32,000 nucleotides of DNA, taken from Candidatus Saccharimonadota bacterium. Its GTDB lineage: Bacteria > Patescibacteriota > Gracilibacteria > BD1-5 > UBA6164. Position 1 is the stretch's first letter; each line of letters starts with the position of its first letter. The notes beneath the pieces were generated by a model. The model had not been told where the DNA came from. It did not search any database and was given only the letters and a program-made list of their open reading frames with translations. The stretch lies in assembly GCA_965227835.1 (NCBI GenBank), contig OZ245768.1, positions 210,001 through 242,000 on the forward strand. Direction: 5' to 3'. Positions 8,596-32,000 of this stretch are shown here, one piece after another. The position numbers were made by a program, and so were the translations under genes.

Positions 8596-9618
8596 ATGAG
8601 CAAGAATATACTATACAAAATTGATTTAAAATCAATCGTTTCTATAGGGCTAGATGTAAGTAAAAATAAAATAGATATTTGCTTACATAGCAATGAAAAA
8701 AATTTCTTCTTACAAATTAAAAATAATGAAACATGAATTTCTAATCTCATTAGTTGATTAAAAAATAATAATTTTAATCAAAATATACCTCTAGTTATAG
8801 AGTCAACTTGAGATTATAGTACTTTGGCTTGCATGTTACTTTCTAAAGCAAATTTCAATGTAAAAGAAATTAATCCCATTATTACTAAAAATTACACTAA
8901 ATCCACTATTAGATGAATAAAAACAGATAAAATAGATGCTAATATCCTAGCTAATATTTGAGCTTTAAATAAAAATGAATTGTTTTCTTATAATAAAACT
9001 AAAGCTTTTATTGCTATTAGTAAAAAAATATCATTGGTAGCAAATCTTGAAAAACAAATTCAATCATTAAAAATGACTATAAAAAGCTTTTATGAAATAA
9101 ACCAAAAAATTCATTTAGATATTTCTTCGAATGTAAAAAATATAAATATATCTATTTCTAAACTTGAGGATAATATTAAAAATCTTCAGAAAGAAATTCA
9201 GGAGGAGTCTATTTGAAAAGTAGAAGATAAAAAAATAGAGTTAATATGTTCTATAACAGGTTTTTCTAAATATATTGCTACTGTATCTTATGTCTCTTTT
9301 GCTCATAAAGATTTTGTTTCTAAAGAGTCTATGTATGCTTTTGTATGATATGATCCTAAATTGAAAGAAAGTGGAACTTTTAATTGAAAAGCCAGAATTA
9401 CAAAAAGGTGAAATCCTTATGTAAGAAAAAAATTGTTTCAGGCTGCTTTTTGTGCTACTAGGCATTCTAAATTGTTTAAGGGTATTTATGATAGGGCTAG
9501 AGAAAAATGAAAGCATCATTTTGTTTGTGTTATTAATGTTGTGAAGAAGATGATTCATATTTTATTTGCTTTGCTTAAAAATAACTCTGTTTTTAATCCT
9601 AATTTTGCCAAAATTTAG
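8596..9618 (+). CDS. IS110-family transposase/recombinase (DEDD type), 340 aa
   Basis: Motifs are IGLDVSKNKIDIC, VIESTGDYS, EINP, IKTDKIDANILA, YDPKLKESGTFNGKARITKRGNPYVRKKLFQAAF, and GKHHFVCVINVVKKMIHILFALLK. About 10 in-frame TGA are read as Gly. Track ORF 8980-9216 is an internal fragment. Confidence 0.9.
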
Positions 9619-9659
9619 TACTTTCTTTTCTTTTTCTTTTGACTTTCCTCATAATAGGA

Positions 9660-9700
9660 CTCTCCTTAGAGGAGATGGGAGTAAAACAGAAGGAATAGAA
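9660..9700 (+). repeat. 3' half of the family-1 GC-rich repeat split by the IS110 element
   Basis: ctctccttagaggagatgggagtaaaacagaaggaatagaa matches the 3' half of the copies at 2366-2425 and 12520-12610. Confidence 0.6.
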
Positions 9701-9770: not shown

Positions 9771-9970
9771 GTGTCCCTTCAACAGAGGGCTTTAGTCCTT
9801 TGCCCATTAACAATATTTGCATTCAGCCTTTTGCATAGTAAGATTTTTGCAAATATAAATCTTAATTGCAAATTATCCTAAATTTAGTATATTCCTTTAG
9901 GCAGTGAGCTTTAGCCCTTTGTCCCATATTACATTATATCCTTTCAACAGAAAGCTTCATCCTTTTGCCT
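9771..9970 (+). repeat. Cluster of three family-2 hairpins plus copy B of the 80-nt unit
   Basis: The hairpins are cagagggctttagtcctttg (9783-9802), cagtgagctttagccctttg (9902-9921) and cagaaagcttcatccttttg (9948-9967). The 80-nt unit spans 9843-9925. Confidence 0.7.
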
Positions 9971-10034
9971 AGTAGAAATTTTGACAAAAAACTATGATAA
10001 ACTTTTAACTTTTAACTCTTAACTCCCCCCTCAA

Positions 10035-11456
10035 ATGAAAAACAAACTAACCCTCCAACCAAAAAAAGCCTTCACCCTAGTAGAACTAATAGTAGTAGTA
10101 ACAATACTAGCAATAATCTGAACAATATGATTTGTAAGCTATACAGACTATCTATCTTGAGTAAGAGATACAAATAGAACAGTACAACTAGAAAGTATAT
10201 GAGATTGATTAAAACTATCACTAACAAGATGAAGACTTCCAATACCCGATGACTATATAGAAGTTAAAACTAATTGAAATACTATAGCATATCAAGGATA
10301 TGCATGAGAAGAAGTACTAAAAAAAATTAAATATGACAAAGAAGGTAAAGACCCACTAGATAATACATATTTTTCATACTATGCTACAGACAATAGAAAG
10401 AACTTTCAATTAATGGCATTACTAGAAGAAACAAATGAAACTGTAAGTTTATTTAAGGGAGAAGTATTATCTAATGATATAGATTATGCAGATAGACAAG
10501 TTAAGGTAAGTTGAAAGAAGCTATGAATATTAACTGGGGGTTGAGATAATTTAAATGTACCAGTACAAGAGATATGAGAGATAAAAGATAATTGAGAATT
10601 AGATATAGCTACTACAGGAGAAGAATATATATCCCATATAGATGATATTGATAAGATTAGTTGAAGTTGAAGTGAATTAATAAAATCAATATATAATTCT
10701 AGTTGTAAGAGGATACTAGAATCTAGCTTAGATAATTGAGATTGAATTTATAAGATAAATCCTGCTGGAACAGAAGAATTTGAAGTTTATTGTGATATGA
10801 GTACTGATGGAGGTGGTTGGACTTTTTTATGGAAAAACTATGGAGGACCAGGAGCTACTGGAATTTCAAATGAAAATCTTTTAGTTTCAAATCAAAATGA
10901 TTTAGTAATTCCACAAAAAAATGGAGGAGAATTTAATTCAGAAATAAATACAAATGCTTGGAATTATTTTAAAGAATTAGAAAATGTAGAATTAATAAAG
11001 TTAGCAAGTTATAAAAATCGTCCAAGTGAATTTACACTTGCTTTTGGAAGTGGAACAGGTGTTTGGAACAAAATACATTTAGATTTGGGAGAAAGTGTTA
11101 CTTTCTCTGATTTATTTGATTTAACAAATCCTAATATTTTTACAAATTCTTATGGAGATGACTGTCTGAAACTTGATAATCAGGTTGAAATGTTTATAGA
11201 TGATTCCTCTTATGGAAAATCTGATTATATTTTCTTCAGAAATAATGAATCCTTTGGATTTGCTAATAGTCATCAAGATAGAGATTTTTGTGGAGAAACA
11301 AACCAAGATAATTTAATGAATGGCTGGGGAGCAAGACATGTAATTTCCTATGTTCATAATCAAAATGAACAAAATGCAGTTAGATGTCAATTTCAATGCT
11401 GGAATGGGACTGAAAATTATTGGATTGAAACTGCTTGGGGAATTAGAGAAAGATAA
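10035..11456 (+). CDS. Type IV pilin-like protein with a C-terminal fibrinogen-related-domain-like module, 473 aa
   Basis: The prepilin-type N-terminus is MKNKLTLQPKKAFTLVELIVVVTILAII. SCKRILESSLDNGDGIYKINPAGTEEFEVYCDMSTDGGGWTF matches the hallmark FReD start. Track ORF 10797-11456 is the C-terminal part of this frame. Confidence 0.85.
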
Positions 11457-11636
11457 AATAACAAGTTTTTTCTTAAAAATATTTATTTTTTAGACCCCTA
11501 AAGTATTTTTTGCAAACCAGTAAAAATTTTATAAAATAAGCTTTTGTTTTAATTATTCATTTTTAGATTTTAAAAATCTTTAAAGTTTGTAAATCAATAA
11601 TTAGAAAGCTTTATTTTTTTACTACTTAAAAACTCT

Positions 11637-12374
11637 ATGGCAATTAGCAAAAAAGCTGTAAACGATCCAGTAAATATAGAAAAAGTATCTAAACTACTCC
11701 AAAAACTTGATATAAAATACAAGGAAACATCTCACTATATATTATCATTCATCCACAGATCAATAGTAAATGAGAGACCAGATTTTACTCCAGAACACAA
11801 TGAAAGATTAGAATTTTTATGAGATGCGGTTTTAGAATTAGTAATCACAGATAAACTATTTAAAGACTTTCCTAAAAAACCAGAATGAGAATTGACAGAC
11901 ATTAGAAGTGCTCTTGTTAGATGAAAAAACCTTGCTGTAATTACTAGAGAACTAGGATTTTCAGATTATTTGTTTATGTGAAATTGAGAAGAAAAAATGT
12001 GATGAAGAAGCAATGATTATATATTAGCAAATACACTTGAAGCATTTATAGGAGCTATGTATGTAGACCTTTGAATAGAAAAAACAAGAGATTTTATAAT
12101 AAAACATATATATAAAACACTTGACTCTATATTGGAAAATAACCTTACAAAAGATTATAAAACACTCTATCAGGAATACAGCCAATCAAAATATGATATT
12201 ACACCAAACTATAAATTAATATCTGATTCTTGACCAGATCACGATAAACATTTTGAAGTTGGTGTATTTTTAGAAGAAAAAATGTCTTGAACATGACAAT
12301 GAACAAGTAAGAAAAAAGCCCAAGAACAAGCAGCAAAAAATGCTTATATGAATATAAGTTGAGATATGATTTAG
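11637..12374 (+). CDS. rnc: Ribonuclease III
   Basis: It has the signature HNERLEFLGDAVLELVI with the Gly encoded by TGA at 11820-11822. It also has EAFIGAMYVDLG and the dsRBD motif GPDHDKHFEVGV...KKKAQEQAAKNA. Confidence 0.95.
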
Positions 12375-15489: not shown

Positions 15490-16446
15490 ATGATATACTT
15501 TTTTACATGAGATAATAGTTATTTGGTAAAAGAGAAAACTTTAGAATGGAAAAATATTTATATAAAAAAATATTGAGATTTTAGTTTGACTCACTTTAAG
15601 GATTTAAAAAATATTTGAGATGAGCTTTTGATTCAAGAAATATTGTCTCTTGGTTTTATGAATGAAAAAAAACTGATTATTATAGATGATTTTCCCTTGA
15701 AAGCTGGTGAAAAAGATCAAGCTTTAATCCAAAAACAAGATTTACTTCAAGGTATCATTACAGATATTCCAGAAAACAATATAGTTCTTTTTTCCAGTTC
15801 ATCCCCTGATAAAAGATCCAAATTTTATAAAGCTATTATAAAAAATGTAAACAAAGTAGAAGAATTTAATAGTAAAGGGGATTCATACATATATCCCGTT
15901 ATAAAATCAAAATTTGATGGTTTAATAGATATAGATGCTTTGAATTTACTTATAAAATATAAAGGAGGACATATAGAAAAGATAATATCTGAAATAGAAA
16001 AACTACTTATAACAAATGATAGAATAAATAAAAAACTTGTAGAAGATAATATTTTTCCAGAATTAGAAGAGTCTATTTTTCAATTTATAGATGATATAAT
16101 GAATTTAAATATATATCCTGCCTTAGAAAAACTGGATATAATTTTATCACAAGTTTCAGTTTATTCTTTTTATAACAATCTAATTTCAAATTTGAGAAAT
16201 CTTGTTTTTATATCAAACTTAAAATTAGATGAAAGAGTTCCTAGTAGAGATATATCAGAAATACTTGATTTAGGTAATAGGTCTTTTTTAGTAAATAAAA
16301 GATATAAAATTAGTTTAGAAACTTTAAATAGTCTATATATAGGATTAATAGATTTAGATAAAAAAATGAAGTCAGGTAAAATGATAGGTAGTGAAGATAA
16401 AGTTTTAAAATATGAAATAGAGAAAGAACTTTTAAAGGTTTTGTAG
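15490..16446 (+). CDS. holA: DNA polymerase III delta subunit (probable), 318 aa
   Basis: MIYFFTGDNSYLVKEKTLEWK...LGFMNEKKLIIIDDFP resembles the HolA N-terminal pattern. Track ORF 15628-16446 extends 46 codons upstream through 3 TGA to the ATG at 15490. Confidence 0.65.
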
Positions 16447-19488: not shown

Positions 19489-19993
19489 AGGCTCCTTTTC
19501 TTTTCAGGAGGAAAAATAATGGATCAAAAATTATGAATATGAAAGGAAACTCTCTCAGGAAGTTTTTCATAAATTCATAATTTAAAATCGAATTTTTTAT
19601 ATCTCTGAGTTCAAAGTTAAAAACTAACTCATATCCCTGTAAATTTGTTCTTATATAAGCTAATATATATACATTTACTAATAGAAAAAATGAAAAAATA
19701 GTTATGTACATACCGCTATGATCAATATTTTCCCATATAAGTGTAGCAACAACAGCGAAAAGAATATATGAAAAATATTGACAAAAAGGCAAACTTGATA
19801 CAAACATAAATTCTTCACTATTAGTAAATAGAGCAATAACAATGATCAATACAGCTATAACCAGTGGTATGGTAAATCCAGCTAAAGGATAAAGGTATTT
19901 GTATTCAGAGGATATATTTTGCTTACCTATCCAAAATATGAATAATACTGTAAACAAAAGTATATATTTGAAGTTAATGCAAAAATATTTCAT
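19487..19993 (-). CDS. Hypothetical integral membrane protein, 168 aa
   Basis: It is an intact standard-code ORF with 4-5 hydrophobic segments. A strong SD lies upstream (aaaaaggagtattattATG). No TGA codon is used. Confidence 0.7.
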   Translation of the reverse strand: MKYFCINFKYILLFTVLFIFWIGKQNISSEYKYLYPLAGFTIPLVIAVLIIVIALFTNSEEFMFVSSLPFCQYFSYILFAVVATLIWENIDHSGMYITIFSFFLLVNVYILAYIRTNLQGYELVFNFELRDIKNSILNYEFMKNFLREFPFIFIIFDPLFFLLKRKGA

Positions 19994-21282: not shown

Positions 21283-22567
21283 CTCAAAACTACCCACTTT
21301 TTATAAAATCGACATATGAGAATAAGGATAACTGAGGGAAATGTAGGTTGTTTTTATTATTTAAATTTTTAATATGTTTTTTAGGAGGTTTATACAACTT
21401 TGTTAAACAATAAGATATAAATTTAACAATAGAATTAGAATTCATAGTTATTCATCGAGATTTTGTATAATCTCTAAATCTAGATTTAAATCTAGAAGAA
21501 AGTATAAACCTCTGATTCTCACAAAAAGAATTATTCTTTTTATATATAGTCCTAGTCAAAGCCATAGCCAACTGTATAGTAGAAACAAAATTTTTAAATA
21601 CTATTAAACTCTTAGCTTGAAGTTTCTCAAGCTGAAACTCCTGCTTCATAGTTTTAAATATTGTCTCTATTTCCCGTCTTTGTTTATATTCTTCTATATC
21701 TGTTTTTCTTGAATTTGATAATATCCTCATTGGTTCAGGAAATTTAGGATTTGATTTAATATGAAGATATATTGATTCATTAACTGAATTAATTCTTACC
21801 TTATGAACTCAATCTTTAAATTCCTTTAATTTCAAATATTTATTGGTTTTTAAATCAAAATATATCCTATTCTTTTTAGCTCTTATTATCCATCTATTTA
21901 CACTATTATTTAAAAACTCTATATATGATGCTATATCATATCAAGCATCATATACATATATTCACTTTCATTTAGTATAATCTTCTACTTTTTTAATTAA
22001 TTTTCAAAAATATTCAGATTTAAATTTATTAGTTAAATCTTCATACTCAAGTATTACAGGAATTCAATTTATACTTACTCAATGATACATATATCAAGAA
22101 ACTATATTTCAAGTACTTCAATCTCTTACTTTAGATAAATTTTCTAGCTTCTTTGAGTATTGTTTTGCTATATCAACTTCATCAAAAACTATATAATCAT
22201 TTTTATTTATTTTTCATAACATAGAAAAACATCTTTTTTCTACTTTTAGGTTAAAATTTTTAAAACTATCTTTTTCAAAGAAATGTTTTATTTTTTCACT
22301 CATTTTGTTAGGATTTTTATATTTTCAAAATCATAATTTGTTCATTATTGTTGTTCTTAGCTTTATTATATCTCAAAAAAACTCTTTAATAAATCTTTTA
22401 TCATTTTTGCATTCATATTTCATTAAATATCATAGTTCTTTGTTTATTATTTTTTGTATTTCTTGCATAAAAAAAAGTAATAATAATATATTACTTCAAT
22501 TATTAGATTATCCCCTCTGTCAAGCTTTTTTTAGACTTTTTTATTAAAAAAACTGGGGAGTTTTGAG
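21283..22567 (-). mobile_element. IS4-like insertion sequence, copy 1 (1285 bp)
   Basis: The terminal inverted repeats are ctcaaaactacccac and, as reverse complement, ctcaaaactccccag. A 6-bp target duplication TAAAAA lies at 21277-21282 and 22568-22573. By eye it is identical base for base to 30195-31479. Confidence 0.9.
21452..22468 (-). CDS. IS4-family DDE transposase, 338 aa
   Basis: I translated every codon by hand: MQEIQKIINKELGYLMKYE...VFDEVD...YVYDAGYD...YKQRREIETIFKTMK. The last motif has the Y-2-R-3-E-6-K signature spacing. About 16 in-frame TGA are read as Gly. Track ORF 21452-21730 is only the C-terminal 92 aa. Confidence 0.9.
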
Positions 22568-24188: not shown

Positions 24189-25133
24189 AATCATTAAAAA
24201 AAAATTAAAATATTTATCATATTTTAATCTTTTTATTATATTTTTGTAATTTAAATCTATCTTTTTGCAGAGGTCCCTCAAGCTATTAGATTAATTATAT
24301 TTTCACTTGATTTATCTTTTATTTTAAAAATTTTAGGTAACCTAGTCTTTCTATCAACCAATGTAAGTATAGCTCATTTAAATCATTTTTTAGAAACAAT
24401 TAAATCAGCTTCAATATGTCATTTTTCTTCTCTGTTATTTATTGTTTCAGGTCTATTTTTAATACTAACTCTATTTTTAATTTTCACTCTTTCTGTTTGT
24501 TGTTTTTTCTTTCTATAACCTTTATGTTTATATAATAATAGTTCTTTATATTTATTTCACATACCAGTTTCTAGCCAAGAATATATACTTGTATGGGAGA
24601 TATGTTTCTTTTTATCTGTTTGAGTATTATTCCGTTTCTTAGCAATTGTTTTTGGGGACATTTGTATTTCTGTTATTGATAGTTGTTCTATTATGAAATT
24701 TTTCATATTAGTATTCATATTTATCTTCATTGATTGAGTTTTTGTTAGCCATCGTCTTTGATATGATTTGATTTCTGCTTCTAGTGCTAAATATACTTTT
24801 TTATTGTTTCATCGTTTTTTTACTGAATTTCTGTATATCTCTCTGCTTATTGTTGATTCTGATCTTTTTAGTATTGATGCTATATCTTTTTTCTTTAATC
24901 ATTTATTTAAATGAAATTCAATACTTTCTCTCTCTTGGAATATTAATTGTCAGTACATATCTTATTATATTAGAAAATAATGTTATTACCCTACGGGGAA
25001 TACTATATTTTCTTCTCTTTTAATTGCACTTCATTTCTTACTTTGGGAGAAAGACTGTCTTTCTGTTAATTTTAACTTAGATGGCAGAACTTACTATTTT
25101 ATAGTTTTGCTAATACACTTTTGGAGGTGTAAA

Positions 25134-25397
25134 ATGAAACAAGAATATAAACTAAGTAATGGTGGGTCTAATCGAATTCCAAAAAATGCAAAGATATTAG
25201 GAATAAGAATGGACAAATTAGGTATTCACATTTCTGCAGAAGTTGATCCAAGTAACGAAATAGAAACAAGGTATTTTTTTGTTATCATTGGGGATTCTGT
25301 AAAAATGAAAAGTAATCTAAAATACATACTTACACAAGATTTACTAGTTCATGATGGTGTAACAATACTTACTGGAGAACTCTTTGAGTTAAAGTAA
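25134..25397 (+). CDS. Small hypothetical protein, 87 aa (MKQEYKLSNGGSNRIPKNAKILGIRMDKLGIHISAEVDP...)
   Basis: The SD is ggaggtgtaaaATG. The frame is intact with no TGA, and an intrinsic terminator follows 20 nt downstream. The track ORF starts earlier, at an alternative TTG at 25107. Confidence 0.65.
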   Translation: MKQEYKLSNGGSNRIPKNAKILGIRMDKLGIHISAEVDPSNEIETRYFFVIIGDSVKMKSNLKYILTQDLLVHDGVTILTGELFELK

Positions 25398-29210: not shown

Positions 29211-30134
29211 ATGAACAATAGCCAATATTTATCACAATTTAAATGGAAATGATTAAGTTTTGATTATGGTTCAGATTATCATTTTGATTTAAAGAATTAT
29301 ACTCCCAAAAAAGTAAGTGAAATTATAAAAAAATACAAAAAAAATAATATATTAATTTTTACTGGGGATTTATATGACAATTTTAAAGGAAAAGATTTGA
29401 GCCAAGAAGTAGAAGAAGTATTAAATAGACTTGTTGGTTTAGGTTGATATGAATATGTATTATATACTCCAGGAAATCATGATATAAGATCTATAGAAAA
29501 ACCATTTTGTAGGAGTAAATTATTAAATGAGAGAGTAATAATTCCAGAAAATTATGTAAAAAAAATAACTTTATCTGGAGTAAATATACTTCTTTGAAAT
29601 GTTATGTATGAACCAATAATTCCTCCTGAAGAGATAGATATAAAAGCAGATGAATTAAATGATTTTTATAAGAAAATTTCCGATTGAAAATTTATAAAAG
29701 ATTTAAATCTTTGTGAATTTTCACAAATGGCAGAAATTGTTCGTAGTAACTTAAACAAAGATATAGATATAATTATAACTCATCCTCCAATTCATCCTTA
29801 TGCTTCAATTTTTATGTCTGAAGAAAAAACTCACAACACAGAAAGACTTATCAAAAAGTATGGTGTAAAATTTTTGTATGGAGAAGAAGCAAAAGAAAAA
29901 TGGGAGAAAACAATGAAAAAGTGGGGGCCAGAATATTATATGAGCTTCAAAGATTTTATAGATAAGTTTTGGAATCTAAAATCAATACTTATTGGTAGTA
30001 ATTTGCTAAATTGAGTTGATTTTCAAGATGGTTTACTTTCTATATTTGGACATATACATAGGTCTATGAATGATAGCTATATAGTTGATTGAAAAACTGT
30101 AAATTTTTTGTCTTTTCGAAGAGAAGAGGGTTAA
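29211..30134 (+). CDS. Calcineurin-like metallophosphoesterase, 307 aa
   Basis: It has LIFTGDLYDN, YTPGNHD, IIITHPPIHP and IFGHIHRS. Track ORF 29727-30014 is an internal fragment in the same frame. Confidence 0.8.
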
Positions 30135-30194: not shown

Positions 30195-31479
30195 CTCAAA
30201 ACTACCCACTTTTTATAAAATCGACATATGAGAATAAGGATAACTGAGGGAAATGTAGGTTGTTTTTATTATTTAAATTTTTAATATGTTTTTTAGGAGG
30301 TTTATACAACTTTGTTAAACAATAAGATATAAATTTAACAATAGAATTAGAATTCATAGTTATTCATCGAGATTTTGTATAATCTCTAAATCTAGATTTA
30401 AATCTAGAAGAAAGTATAAACCTCTGATTCTCACAAAAAGAATTATTCTTTTTATATATAGTCCTAGTCAAAGCCATAGCCAACTGTATAGTAGAAACAA
30501 AATTTTTAAATACTATTAAACTCTTAGCTTGAAGTTTCTCAAGCTGAAACTCCTGCTTCATAGTTTTAAATATTGTCTCTATTTCCCGTCTTTGTTTATA
30601 TTCTTCTATATCTGTTTTTCTTGAATTTGATAATATCCTCATTGGTTCAGGAAATTTAGGATTTGATTTAATATGAAGATATATTGATTCATTAACTGAA
30701 TTAATTCTTACCTTATGAACTCAATCTTTAAATTCCTTTAATTTCAAATATTTATTGGTTTTTAAATCAAAATATATCCTATTCTTTTTAGCTCTTATTA
30801 TCCATCTATTTACACTATTATTTAAAAACTCTATATATGATGCTATATCATATCAAGCATCATATACATATATTCACTTTCATTTAGTATAATCTTCTAC
30901 TTTTTTAATTAATTTTCAAAAATATTCAGATTTAAATTTATTAGTTAAATCTTCATACTCAAGTATTACAGGAATTCAATTTATACTTACTCAATGATAC
31001 ATATATCAAGAAACTATATTTCAAGTACTTCAATCTCTTACTTTAGATAAATTTTCTAGCTTCTTTGAGTATTGTTTTGCTATATCAACTTCATCAAAAA
31101 CTATATAATCATTTTTATTTATTTTTCATAACATAGAAAAACATCTTTTTTCTACTTTTAGGTTAAAATTTTTAAAACTATCTTTTTCAAAGAAATGTTT
31201 TATTTTTTCACTCATTTTGTTAGGATTTTTATATTTTCAAAATCATAATTTGTTCATTATTGTTGTTCTTAGCTTTATTATATCTCAAAAAAACTCTTTA
31301 ATAAATCTTTTATCATTTTTGCATTCATATTTCATTAAATATCATAGTTCTTTGTTTATTATTTTTTGTATTTCTTGCATAAAAAAAAGTAATAATAATA
31401 TATTACTTCAATTATTAGATTATCCCCTCTGTCAAGCTTTTTTTAGACTTTTTTATTAAAAAAACTGGGGAGTTTTGAG
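30195..31479 (-). mobile_element. IS4-like insertion sequence, copy 2 (1285 bp)
   Basis: It has the same sequence and orientation as 21283-22567, at an offset of 8912 bp. Its own 6-bp target duplication CTATAT lies at 30189-30194 and 31480-31485. Confidence 0.9.
30364..31380 (-). CDS. IS4-family DDE transposase, 338 aa (copy 2)
   Basis: It is identical to 21452-22468. The track ORFs 30364-30642 and 21452-21730 have identical peptides. Confidence 0.9.
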
Positions 31480-31605: not shown

Positions 31606-32000
31606 ATGACTTTATCACTAAATTTAGATCAAGAAGTCAAAAAGATGCAACTTAGATATAATATGTCTAAGATTTTTAGATATTTGCCTTTAGTTATAAT
31701 AGGATTAAGTGCTTTTTCTTTTCTATTAATGACTGTAAATATCTTCCTACTTTTTTTCTTCAACTACTCTTTGATAGGAGAGTATGTTATTTATTCTATA
31801 GAACCTCAAATAATTTTATGTATTTTGTCTACAATTATTATATATTATGGTTCTTATTGGGATAGAAAAACAATATTAATGGTAAATGCTTTATATCGAA
31901 GTTTCTTAGGACAGCTGGTATTTAAAAAAATCAAAGCTACAAGTAAGCAACTGGAAAATATAAGAAAAATAATAATTTGTAAACATCCATTTTTATTTGA
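31606..32000 (+). CDS. Hypothetical membrane protein (partial, runs off the window)
   Basis: The SD is aaaaaggagtttatattATG. The protein MTLSLNLDQEVKKMQLRYNMSKIFRYLPLVIIGLSAFSFLLMTVNIFLLFFF... has at least 3 hydrophobic segments. The frame stays open to the window end and uses no TGA. Confidence 0.6.
   Translation, partial: MTLSLNLDQEVKKMQLRYNMSKIFRYLPLVIIGLSAFSFLLMTVNIFLLFFFNYSLIGEYVIYSIEPQIILCILSTIIIYYGSYWDRKTILMVNALYRSFLGQLVFKKIKATSKQLENIRKIIICKHPFLF

Follow-up and report, generated by a model that had tools for sequence, protein, structure and literature searches.

Why should a gene that encodes glycine mostly with TGA cease to do so part of the way along its length? This question is raised by a type IV pilin gene (10035-11456, forward strand) in a 32,000-nucleotide stretch of Candidatus Saccharimonadota DNA (GTDB lineage Gracilibacteria; contig OZ245768.1, positions 210,001 to 242,000), the whole of which is here called the window. 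The protein consists of a pilin module followed by a distal globular region, here called the head, and it is within the part of the gene encoding this head that TGA disappears. Very probably, the distal 216 codons and the stop codon of this pilin gene, which is otherwise written in genetic code 25, have recently been replaced in frame by a standard-code allele from an archaeon of the DPANN group.

The genetic code of the window is central to this interpretation. The GC content of the 32-kb window is 25.4%, and its open reading frames (ORFs) add up to 3,323 aa under code 11 and to 12,820 aa under code 4 or code 25, a nearly fourfold difference; the pilin gene itself is an open frame under code 4 or code 25 only. 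TGA (lower case in the following motifs) is found at invariant glycine positions of RNase III (ERLEFLgDA), FtsW (SYggSS) and an OmpR-type regulator (RgEgY), as well as in the AIIgTIgF motif of the pilin. The window is therefore read with code 25, the code of Gracilibacteria and Absconditabacteria in which TGA encodes glycine, and code 4, in which TGA encodes tryptophan, is ruled out by the same conserved positions. Those homologues that carry a name in the protein search are from Candidatus Gracilibacteria. A tRNA scan of the 32-kb window found zero tRNA genes, and promoter and terminator scans of the window returned nothing informative.

Against this background, the change in glycine codons within the pilin gene is abrupt. 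The first 254 codons (10035-10796) include 17 TGA, 7 GGN and no TGG codons, while the last 220 codons (10797-11456, including the stop) include no TGA, 21 GGN (16 GGA, 3 GGT, 1 GGC and 1 GGG) and 8 TGG codons. A preliminary description of this DNA had reported about 17 TGA among 24 early glycine codons, followed by 21 GGN and no TGA, and the recount agrees exactly with these figures. The final TGA of the gene is at 10743, and 22 successive GGN glycine codons follow from 10767. In the remaining genes of the window, TGA represents 64% of the glycine codons (307/480), and with this background the probability of finding no TGA among 21 glycine codons is 5e-10 under a simple binomial model and 1.5e-5 under a beta-binomial model whose parameters were fitted to the between-gene variation. 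Fisher's test of the first against the last part of the gene gave 3e-7, and when the TGA and GGN labels were shuffled, the longest GGN run averaged 5.8 and reached 22 in 0 of 20,000 shuffles.

Codons for other amino acids shift along with those for glycine. From the first to the last part of the gene, the share of CTA among leucine codons falls from 13/25 to 0/15, that of ATA among isoleucine codons from 19/24 to 4/11 and that of GTA among valine codons from 13/16 to 3/9. Moreover, GGA makes up 76% of the glycine codons in the segment, whereas the background of the window has 12% and the archaeal contigs introduced below have 62-72%. The preliminary description had also identified the distal part as an intact ORF under the standard code; it is indeed intact, and its true extent is 10746-11453.

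Comparison of the whole window with four contigs by BLAST separated the gene into two parts of different origin. Positions 9791-10823 are 95.5% identical to positions 2691-3736 of L002, a Gracilibacteria contig that carries a paralogous pilin gene (encoding P0001). Positions 10744-11489 align with three archaeal contigs, with a DNA identity of 89.3% to L003, 87.3% to L004 and 82.0% to L001, and the first part of the segment (10809-11060) is 98% identical to L003; besides 10744-11489, no match was found between the window and L001, L003 or L004. In a four-way alignment, the window is identical to L002 through …GAT ATG AGT ACT, where the archaeal copies have ATA ACT or ATA ACC, and is of the archaeal type from GGA GGT GGT TGG ACT TTT… onward, where L002 has TGA GGG GGG TGG ACT AAA…. 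The alignment thus confines the crossover to 7 bases (10803-10809) inside CDMSTD/GGGW. The switch had previously been placed just after the CDMSTDGGGW motif; the change in origin instead falls within this motif, between TD and GGGW, and the protein across the junction reads …EVYCDMSTDGGGWTFLWK….

The two ends of the segment differ in character. The 5' crossover lies in a patch of approximately 80 bases, in which the Gracilibacteria and archaeal types are approximately 83% identical and the longest exact run, read by eye from the alignment, is approximately 20 bases. The 3' join shows no clear homology; the archaeal TAA stop is retained at the 3' end of the segment, and a native rnc gene with 13 TGA codons follows at 11637.

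A search with the head only among 5.8 billion proteins identified nine relatives, three of which are close (76-89% identical) and encoded on L001, L003 and L004. These three contigs are all from European Nucleotide Archive sample ERZ25074195, to which all head relatives with more than 75% identity are confined and from which L002 likewise originates. No close copy of the head was found in GTDB genomes, JGI metagenomes (best identity 45%) or viral contigs. The three contigs have a GC content of 24-27%, zero in-frame TGA codons and TGA as the stop codon in five genes, and they are therefore read with the standard code. They encode the archaeal markers S24e, NAC (TIGR00264, 113 bits, cut-off 80) and aIF5A (TIGR00037, 112 bits, cut-off 75); two other contig proteins have the RFC large subunit and Trm5b/Taw2 as their best matches, below the curated cut-offs. 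All named relatives of the SRP54 protein encoded by L003 (49-56% identity) are from Nanoarchaeota, Nanoarchaeales or Woesearchaeota. These markers and the SRP54 relatives indicate that the contigs belong to a DPANN archaeon (Nanoarchaeota/Woesearchaeota-like). The preliminary description had proposed that the distal segment was acquired recently, from a source using the standard code, and that TGA has yet to accumulate in it; this is supported by archaeal DNA that is 82-89% identical overall and 98% identical in part.

The order gene-TctA-SRP54 is common to L001 and L003. Two of the three archaeal copies are damaged: in L003 (9083-10004), an IS200/IS605 insertion sequence (IS) splits the gene approximately 50 bases upstream of the point that corresponds to the crossover in the window, and in L004 (4345-5329 and 8601-9607), the full copy is frameshifted, with IS copies that adjoin this full copy and a 180-base partial copy. 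L003 encodes a stand-alone 236-residue fragment (P0121).

Several comparisons bear on the age and direction of the transfer. Over the first 84 codons after the junction, all 6 differences between the window and L003 are synonymous; L003 has the same codon at 18 of the 21 glycine positions, and dS between the window and L003 is 0.12-0.29. L003 and L004 are 90.7% identical to each other, and L001 is only 82-83% identical to L003, L004 or the window. As the window is nearer to L003 and L004 than L001 is, even though L001 and L003 are syntenic, the window allele appears to branch inside the archaeal clade. A small neighbour-joining tree of the head, a comparison proposed in the preliminary description, agrees with this placement in that the window segment is nested among the archaeal sequences. 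Taken together, this nesting, the donor-like codons and the absence of a close copy in other Gracilibacteria strongly support a transfer from the archaeon to the bacterium. By a rough estimate from this dS, fewer than about one GGA-to-TGA change would be expected among the 16 GGA codons since such a transfer, and zero TGA codons would therefore be the expected outcome.

A plausible course of events can be outlined. Free archaeal DNA would have been taken up by the cell, one crossover would have occurred in the conserved patch that encodes the motif and an illegitimate join would have been formed just beyond the stop codon; recombination would thus have had an anchor at one end only. The product would be an intact 473-residue pilin displaying a head of the archaeal type. 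As the archaeal gene has no sense TGA and as little time would have elapsed, the segment would have retained the glycine and other codons of the donor as well as its TAA stop.

Some observations weigh against a recent archaeal origin of the segment. The best archaeal match is 89% identical overall and approximately 75% identical in 11221-11380, which places the true donor outside the sampled copies; the allele may have come from a fourth strain, or the head may have diversified once transferred. In the small neighbour-joining tree, the clade formed by the archaeal and window sequences sits among the Gracilibacteria heads P0012 and P0062, and an older exchange in the opposite direction may be part of the deeper history. 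Both junctions are known from an assembled contig rather than at the level of single molecules, and weak AT-rich similarity may continue for approximately 30 bases past the stop, fading by approximately 11486. The shared sample applies to L002 and the archaeal contigs rather than to the window, and the window protein is absent from the protein collection searched. Furthermore, the comparison of glycine usage suggested in the preliminary description, which was carried out on the genes of the window, found that the segment is extreme but also that a holA-like gene (encoding DNA polymerase III delta; 15490-16443, forward strand) contains a second long and abrupt TGA-free run. This gene has 3 TGA within its first 43 codons and 11 GGN (7 of them GGT) and no TGA in the other 275 codons; its codons otherwise look native (ATA 26, ATT 11), and comparison with the archaeal loci shows no similarity. 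A TGA-free run can therefore arise without detected archaeal similarity.

Alternative explanations need to be weighed against the same evidence. A third party, i.e., an unsampled standard-code organism or a mobile element such as a virus, plasmid or IS cassette, could have supplied both the archaea and the Gracilibacterium. The lack of any sampled archaeal copy that is more than 89% identical overall would fit this scenario, as would the association of the archaeal copies in L003 and L004 with IS200/IS605 elements, the presence of an IS110 element 0.4 kb upstream in the window and the occurrence of the GGGWT motif on many viral contigs. We nevertheless consider it improbable, given that the chromosomal order gene-TctA-SRP54 is the same in L001 and L003, that the codon usage of the segment fits the archaeal contigs and that the head beyond the motif is found on no viral contig in IMG/VR; a viral carrier in particular was rejected, as the IMG/VR contigs match the GGGWT motif only and not the head. 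A third party of this kind would, in any case, leave a standard-code donor in place. The direction could also have been the reverse, with a native, TGA-free Gracilibacterium head passed on to the archaea. The family of pilins with a GGGWT domain is very large in Gracilibacteria, the neighbour-joining tree has a Gracilibacteria head as the sister of the clade formed by the archaeal and window sequences and a standard-code recipient could use only a TGA-free gene, all of which would be compatible with such a route. The reverse direction seems decidedly improbable, however: the probability of a native stretch with 21 glycine codons and no TGA is approximately 1e-5 to 5e-10, and the share of GGA in the segment (76%) is near that in the archaeal contigs (62-72%) and far from that in the window background (12%); in addition, the window falls inside archaeal diversity, with the syntenic L001 as the outgroup, and protein searches found a close copy in no other Gracilibacterium.

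Two further possibilities involve no transfer at all. An assembly chimera of Gracilibacteria and archaeal reads, which the preliminary description had mentioned, might be suspected because the one sample ERZ25074195 yielded both a close Gracilibacteria relative and the three archaeal contigs, and because of the patch of approximately 80 bases with approximately 83% identity at the 5' junction. However, a chimera would require two junctions separated by 680 bases, of which the first preserves the reading frame, with TGA-using genes, including rnc, flanking both sides, with at most approximately 20 exactly matching bases at the 5' junction and with no homology seen at the 3' junction; as the identity to the three contigs does not exceed 89% overall, a fourth archaeal allele that escaped assembly would have to be assumed as well. 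Chimerism is therefore very unlikely. Selection against TGA in a native segment had been named as well; it might act, for example, on the accuracy or speed of translation in the folded head, and native-looking genes that are poor in TGA do exist in the window (3/14 glycine codons in the holA-like gene and 6/20 in the gene at 29211-30131). This explanation is scarcely credible, as it is contradicted by the homologous heads P0012 and P0062, which use TGA for 86% and 80% of their glycines, and as selection of this kind can yield neither 98% DNA identity to an archaeal gene nor a joint shift in leucine, isoleucine and valine codons. Replacement of the distal segment by archaeal DNA thus remains the preferred interpretation.

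The protein encoded by the mosaic gene has the organization of a modular pilin, with a pilin motif at aa 10-31 followed by a GGGWT domain and head at aa 223-473. The N-terminus matches PF07963 (26.5 bits, cut-off 21.2) and TIGR02532 (23.4 bits, cut-off 16.3), and it includes a class III signal peptide, MKNKLTLQPKKA/FTLVELIVVVTILAIIG (the slash marks the cleavage site); its leader is short and charged, the residue at position -1 is small, F is at +1 and E at +5, and a hydrophobic helix follows. No prepilin peptidase or pilus assembly genes were identified in the 32-kb window. The GGGWT domain model NF040941 (GGGWT_bact; cut-off 30) scores 59.7 bits with the window protein and 47 bits with the archaeal protein P0008, in which, as in proteins P0123-P0128, the head occurs without a pilin module.

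The preliminary description had assigned the head to the fibrinogen-related domains (FReDs). The Pfam match behind this label covers just 36 residues: Fibrinogen_C (PF00147) aligns with aa 234-269 only, i.e., with profile positions 14-50 of 221, and its 28.4 bits rest on the motif alone, so that a full-length match of approximately 220 residues was not found in the head. An AlphaFold2 model of the head has a mean predicted local distance difference test score (pLDDT) of 80 and a predicted template modelling score (pTM) of 0.81, and the 50 best PDB fold matches of the modelled head are all fibrinogen-related or intelectin structures, with weak similarity (E of at least 3e-3, TM-scores of 0.24-0.40). 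Judging from this model, the head would be at most a distant relative of fibrinogen-related domains. It is probably ligand-binding, and an adhesin function is proposed for it. One part of the head, 11221-11380, is 66-75% identical when the window is compared with the archaeal copies and 70-78% identical among the latter, with a dN/dS of 0.64, compared to 0 to 0.11 upstream. As this sub-region is the most divergent in all comparisons, it is a candidate for the ligand-contacting loops. A diversity-generating retroelement was considered for this sub-region and rejected, as no repeat of the head was found near the RVT_1 gene of L004 and the substitutions are not adenine-specific.

A search with the full protein among the same 5.8 billion proteins returned 478 matches, mostly from Gracilibacteria, and nearly all of these align with the first 53-58% of the protein only, stopping at CDMxTDGGGW. 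The nearest seven (P0001-P0007, of which P0002 and P0005 are probably from one genome) are 77-92% identical over the aligned part; they carry several unrelated C-terminal modules, and just P0001 and P0007 have one in common. From these alignments, the pilins appear to form a multi-copy modular family, in which a conserved carrier of approximately 260 residues, extending to YCDMxTDGGGW, is combined with interchangeable heads, and the YCDxxxxGGGW domain appears to be the conserved joint at which heads are exchanged. Heads of other Gracilibacteria that are homologous to the head studied here use TGA normally: P0012 has 18 TGA and 3 GGN in its head (86% TGA) and P0062 has 20 TGA and 5 GGN (80%), including TGA at sites that are aligned to GGN codons of the window. 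Among approximately 80 family members, moreover, W (TGA read as tryptophan) is usually as frequent beyond the motif as ahead of it, which rules out a TGA-poor head as a general property of the family.

Other members of the family, and other proteins with the same motif, provide additional observations. The P0001 gene (L002 2948-4186) has 17 TGA and 8 GGN before the GGW motif and 0 TGA and 8 GGN in the head after it; this head has a collagen C-propeptide-like (COLFI) Pfam match. In the homologous head of P0007, about four of those glycines appear as W, i.e., as TGA. A standard-code donor may have supplied the P0001 head in a second import, and P0007 may represent a later stage. In the archaeal contig L004, a second gene with the GGGWT motif (5475-6059) encodes a different head (…VYCDMITDGGGWTFFGVQANNP…), which suggests that variable heads are not restricted to Gracilibacteria pilins. 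In IMG/VR, 38 viral contigs (L019-L056) carry YCDM…GGGW and match residues 1-38 of the head query, each diverging thereafter; the GGGWT motif may be a joint in phage proteins too. The sole GTDB representative with a full-length head relative (37% identity) is from Chloroflexota (L008 6001-6672, PBMB01000022.1), and the remaining distant relatives of the head (P0123-P0128) resemble proteins secreted by bacteria with the standard code.

A broader hypothesis, which we put forward as doubtful, is that adhesin heads are a resource exchanged repeatedly among episymbionts of both domains, with the YCDMxTDGGGW stretch as the common joint. This joint would be common to Gracilibacteria pilins, DPANN surface proteins and perhaps phage proteins; the partners would have in common the host or ligand to which they attach, code 25 would permit inward flow only and the later gain of TGA would date each import. 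The TGA-free head of P0001 and its TGA-bearing relative P0007 hint at more than one event.

Mobile elements are found near the pilin gene and elsewhere in the window. The IS110 element upstream of the gene (Table 1; Pfam DEDD_Tnp_IS110 and Transposase_20) is 99.7% identical to positions 4291-5655 of L002; it lies in the leader region upstream of the pilin gene in the window and downstream of the paralogue in L002. It is treated here as context of the graft. Two 1,285-base IS copies (21283-22567 and 30195-31479), which are 100% identical and encode a DDE_Tnp_1 transposase of 392 aa, bracket approximately 7.6 kb with transposase fragments, FtsK and a TGA-poor metallophosphoesterase gene (29211-30131, forward strand; 6 TGA among 20 glycine codons), and this pair could, together with its interior, be a composite transposon. 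Three small ORFs, at 19490-19993 (reverse strand), 25107-25394 (forward) and 31606-31998 (forward), lack TGA (0/5, 0/7 and 0/4 glycine codons). These ORFs and the metallophosphoesterase gene are candidate imported or non-coding stretches, each of them too short to be tested singly.

Table 1. Coordinates of the features of the pilin locus, given as positions in the window.
Feature	Coordinates	Strand	Remarks
IS110-family insertion sequence, transposase 8596-9615	8316-9679	+	Intergenic, ahead of the pilin gene
Conserved 5' leader and promoter region, common to the paralogous locus	9791-10034	+	Within the 95.5% match to L002 2691-3736
Mosaic modular type IV pilin gene	10035-11456	+	473 codons and TAA stop, code 25; N_methyl and GGGWT_bact above cut-offs
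Gracilibacteria-type part: pilin module, linker and first two thirds of the GGGWT domain	10035-10808	+	95.5% identity to L002; 17 TGA, 7 GGN
Prepilin N-terminal cleavage/methylation motif, aa 10-31, KKA/FTLVELIVVVTILAII	10062-10127	+	PF07963, TIGR02532
Fibrinogen-like YCDxxxxGGGW domain, aa 223-264	10701-10826	+	NF040941; homologue alignments end here
Crossover interval, …AGT ACT GAT / GGA GGT GGT TGG…	10803-10809	+	Four-way alignment
Archaeal-type 3' segment: distal 216 head residues and TAA stop	10809-11456	+	0 TGA, 21 GGN; identity to L003/L004/L001
Hypervariable head sub-region	11221-11380	+	Most divergent stretch in all pairwise comparisons

The reassigned stop codon acts as a built-in marker of direction, as a code-25 cell reads a standard-code gene, but a standard-code cell cannot read a TGA-rich gene. 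Imports can thus be recognized by tracts free of TGA, and their age should be reflected in the TGA codons gained since. The transfer described here would be a very recent, part-gene transfer from DPANN to the candidate phyla radiation (CPR), and it would affect a surface structure with a presumed role in attachment and DNA uptake, in organisms not yet culturable. If both organisms share a binding head, they may share its target, e.g., a glycan on the surface of a host. The locus also carries a lesson for annotation: standard-code gene callers shrink the gene to its 3' part, either as a 236-codon stop-to-stop frame or as a call from the ATG at 10797, and such a fragment mimics a stand-alone protein, of which the archaeal P0121 is a real example.

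With regard to its mechanism, the graft resembles homology-facilitated illegitimate recombination, in which mosaic genes are reportedly formed by transformation with one-sided homology (as described by de Vries and Wackernagel in 2002), in that one end shows a crossover within a short conserved patch and the other a homology-free join. It differs in that the anchor consists of only approximately 80 bases at approximately 83% identity and in that the mechanism is deduced here from its outcome. Imported DNA keeps the codon usage of its donor for a time, and transferred DNA is said to undergo compositional amelioration thereafter (Lawrence and Ochman in 1997). Like such ameliorating DNA, the segment retains the codon usage of its donor; unlike it, the unchanged marker is a reassigned stop codon and not GC content. 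With ficolins, tachylectin 5A, FGL1, angiopoietins and intelectins, the head shares the YCDM-TDGGGW motif and the NF040941 match (59.7 bits), and its 50 best fold matches are to fibrinogen-related or intelectin structures. Unlike in fibrinogen-related lectins, the Fibrinogen_C alignment covers 36 residues, the fold matches are weak and residues of a calcium or ligand site were not identified in the head.

Modular pilins are already known: Raynaud et al. 2021 described more than 1,200 of them in 264 architectures, some from CPR bacteria (PMC8179133), and those of Streptococcus sanguinis include PilB, with a vWA module, and PilC, with a lectin module (PMC8179133). Large GspG-like pseudopilins have been described in a Gracilibacterium genome, and related Gracilibacteria have been reported to have PilD, PilB, PilC and PilT (PMC6851277). 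Like the S. sanguinis PilB and PilC, the protein encoded in the window combines a prepilin and pilin module with an unrelated globular module that is presumed to be displayed on the filament for adhesion. By comparison, its head is of the GGGWT type and distantly fibrinogen-like, its role in adhesion is proposed from sequence and its graft can be traced as recent, with a 7-base breakpoint and a donor from another domain and with another code.

Exchange between CPR bacteria and DPANN archaea is known as well. Inter-domain transfer has been described for RuBisCO (Jaffe et al. 2019, PMC6389311) and, as cited in PMC12455944, for membrane-related proteins (Jaffe et al. 2016). Nine transfer events between Patescibacteria and DPANN have been described, with Patescibacteria as the predicted donors, and CPR bacteria are considered to be naturally competent via pili and ComEC (PMC12455944). 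The transfer at this locus is similar to known exchange in that it would involve ultrasmall, probably episymbiotic partners that share a habitat and in that it concerns a surface-exposed protein. It is different in that the transferred DNA comprises no more than part of a gene, joined in frame to one already resident, in that the code-25 recipient gives independent evidence of direction and in that, unlike in the nine events with Patescibacteria as donors, the donor is archaeal. While CPR-DPANN exchange and modular pilins are thus both established, what this locus adds is a very recent inter-domain graft of part of a gene into a pilin, with a breakpoint resolved to 7 bases and with an altered genetic code that independently provides both a direction and a clock.

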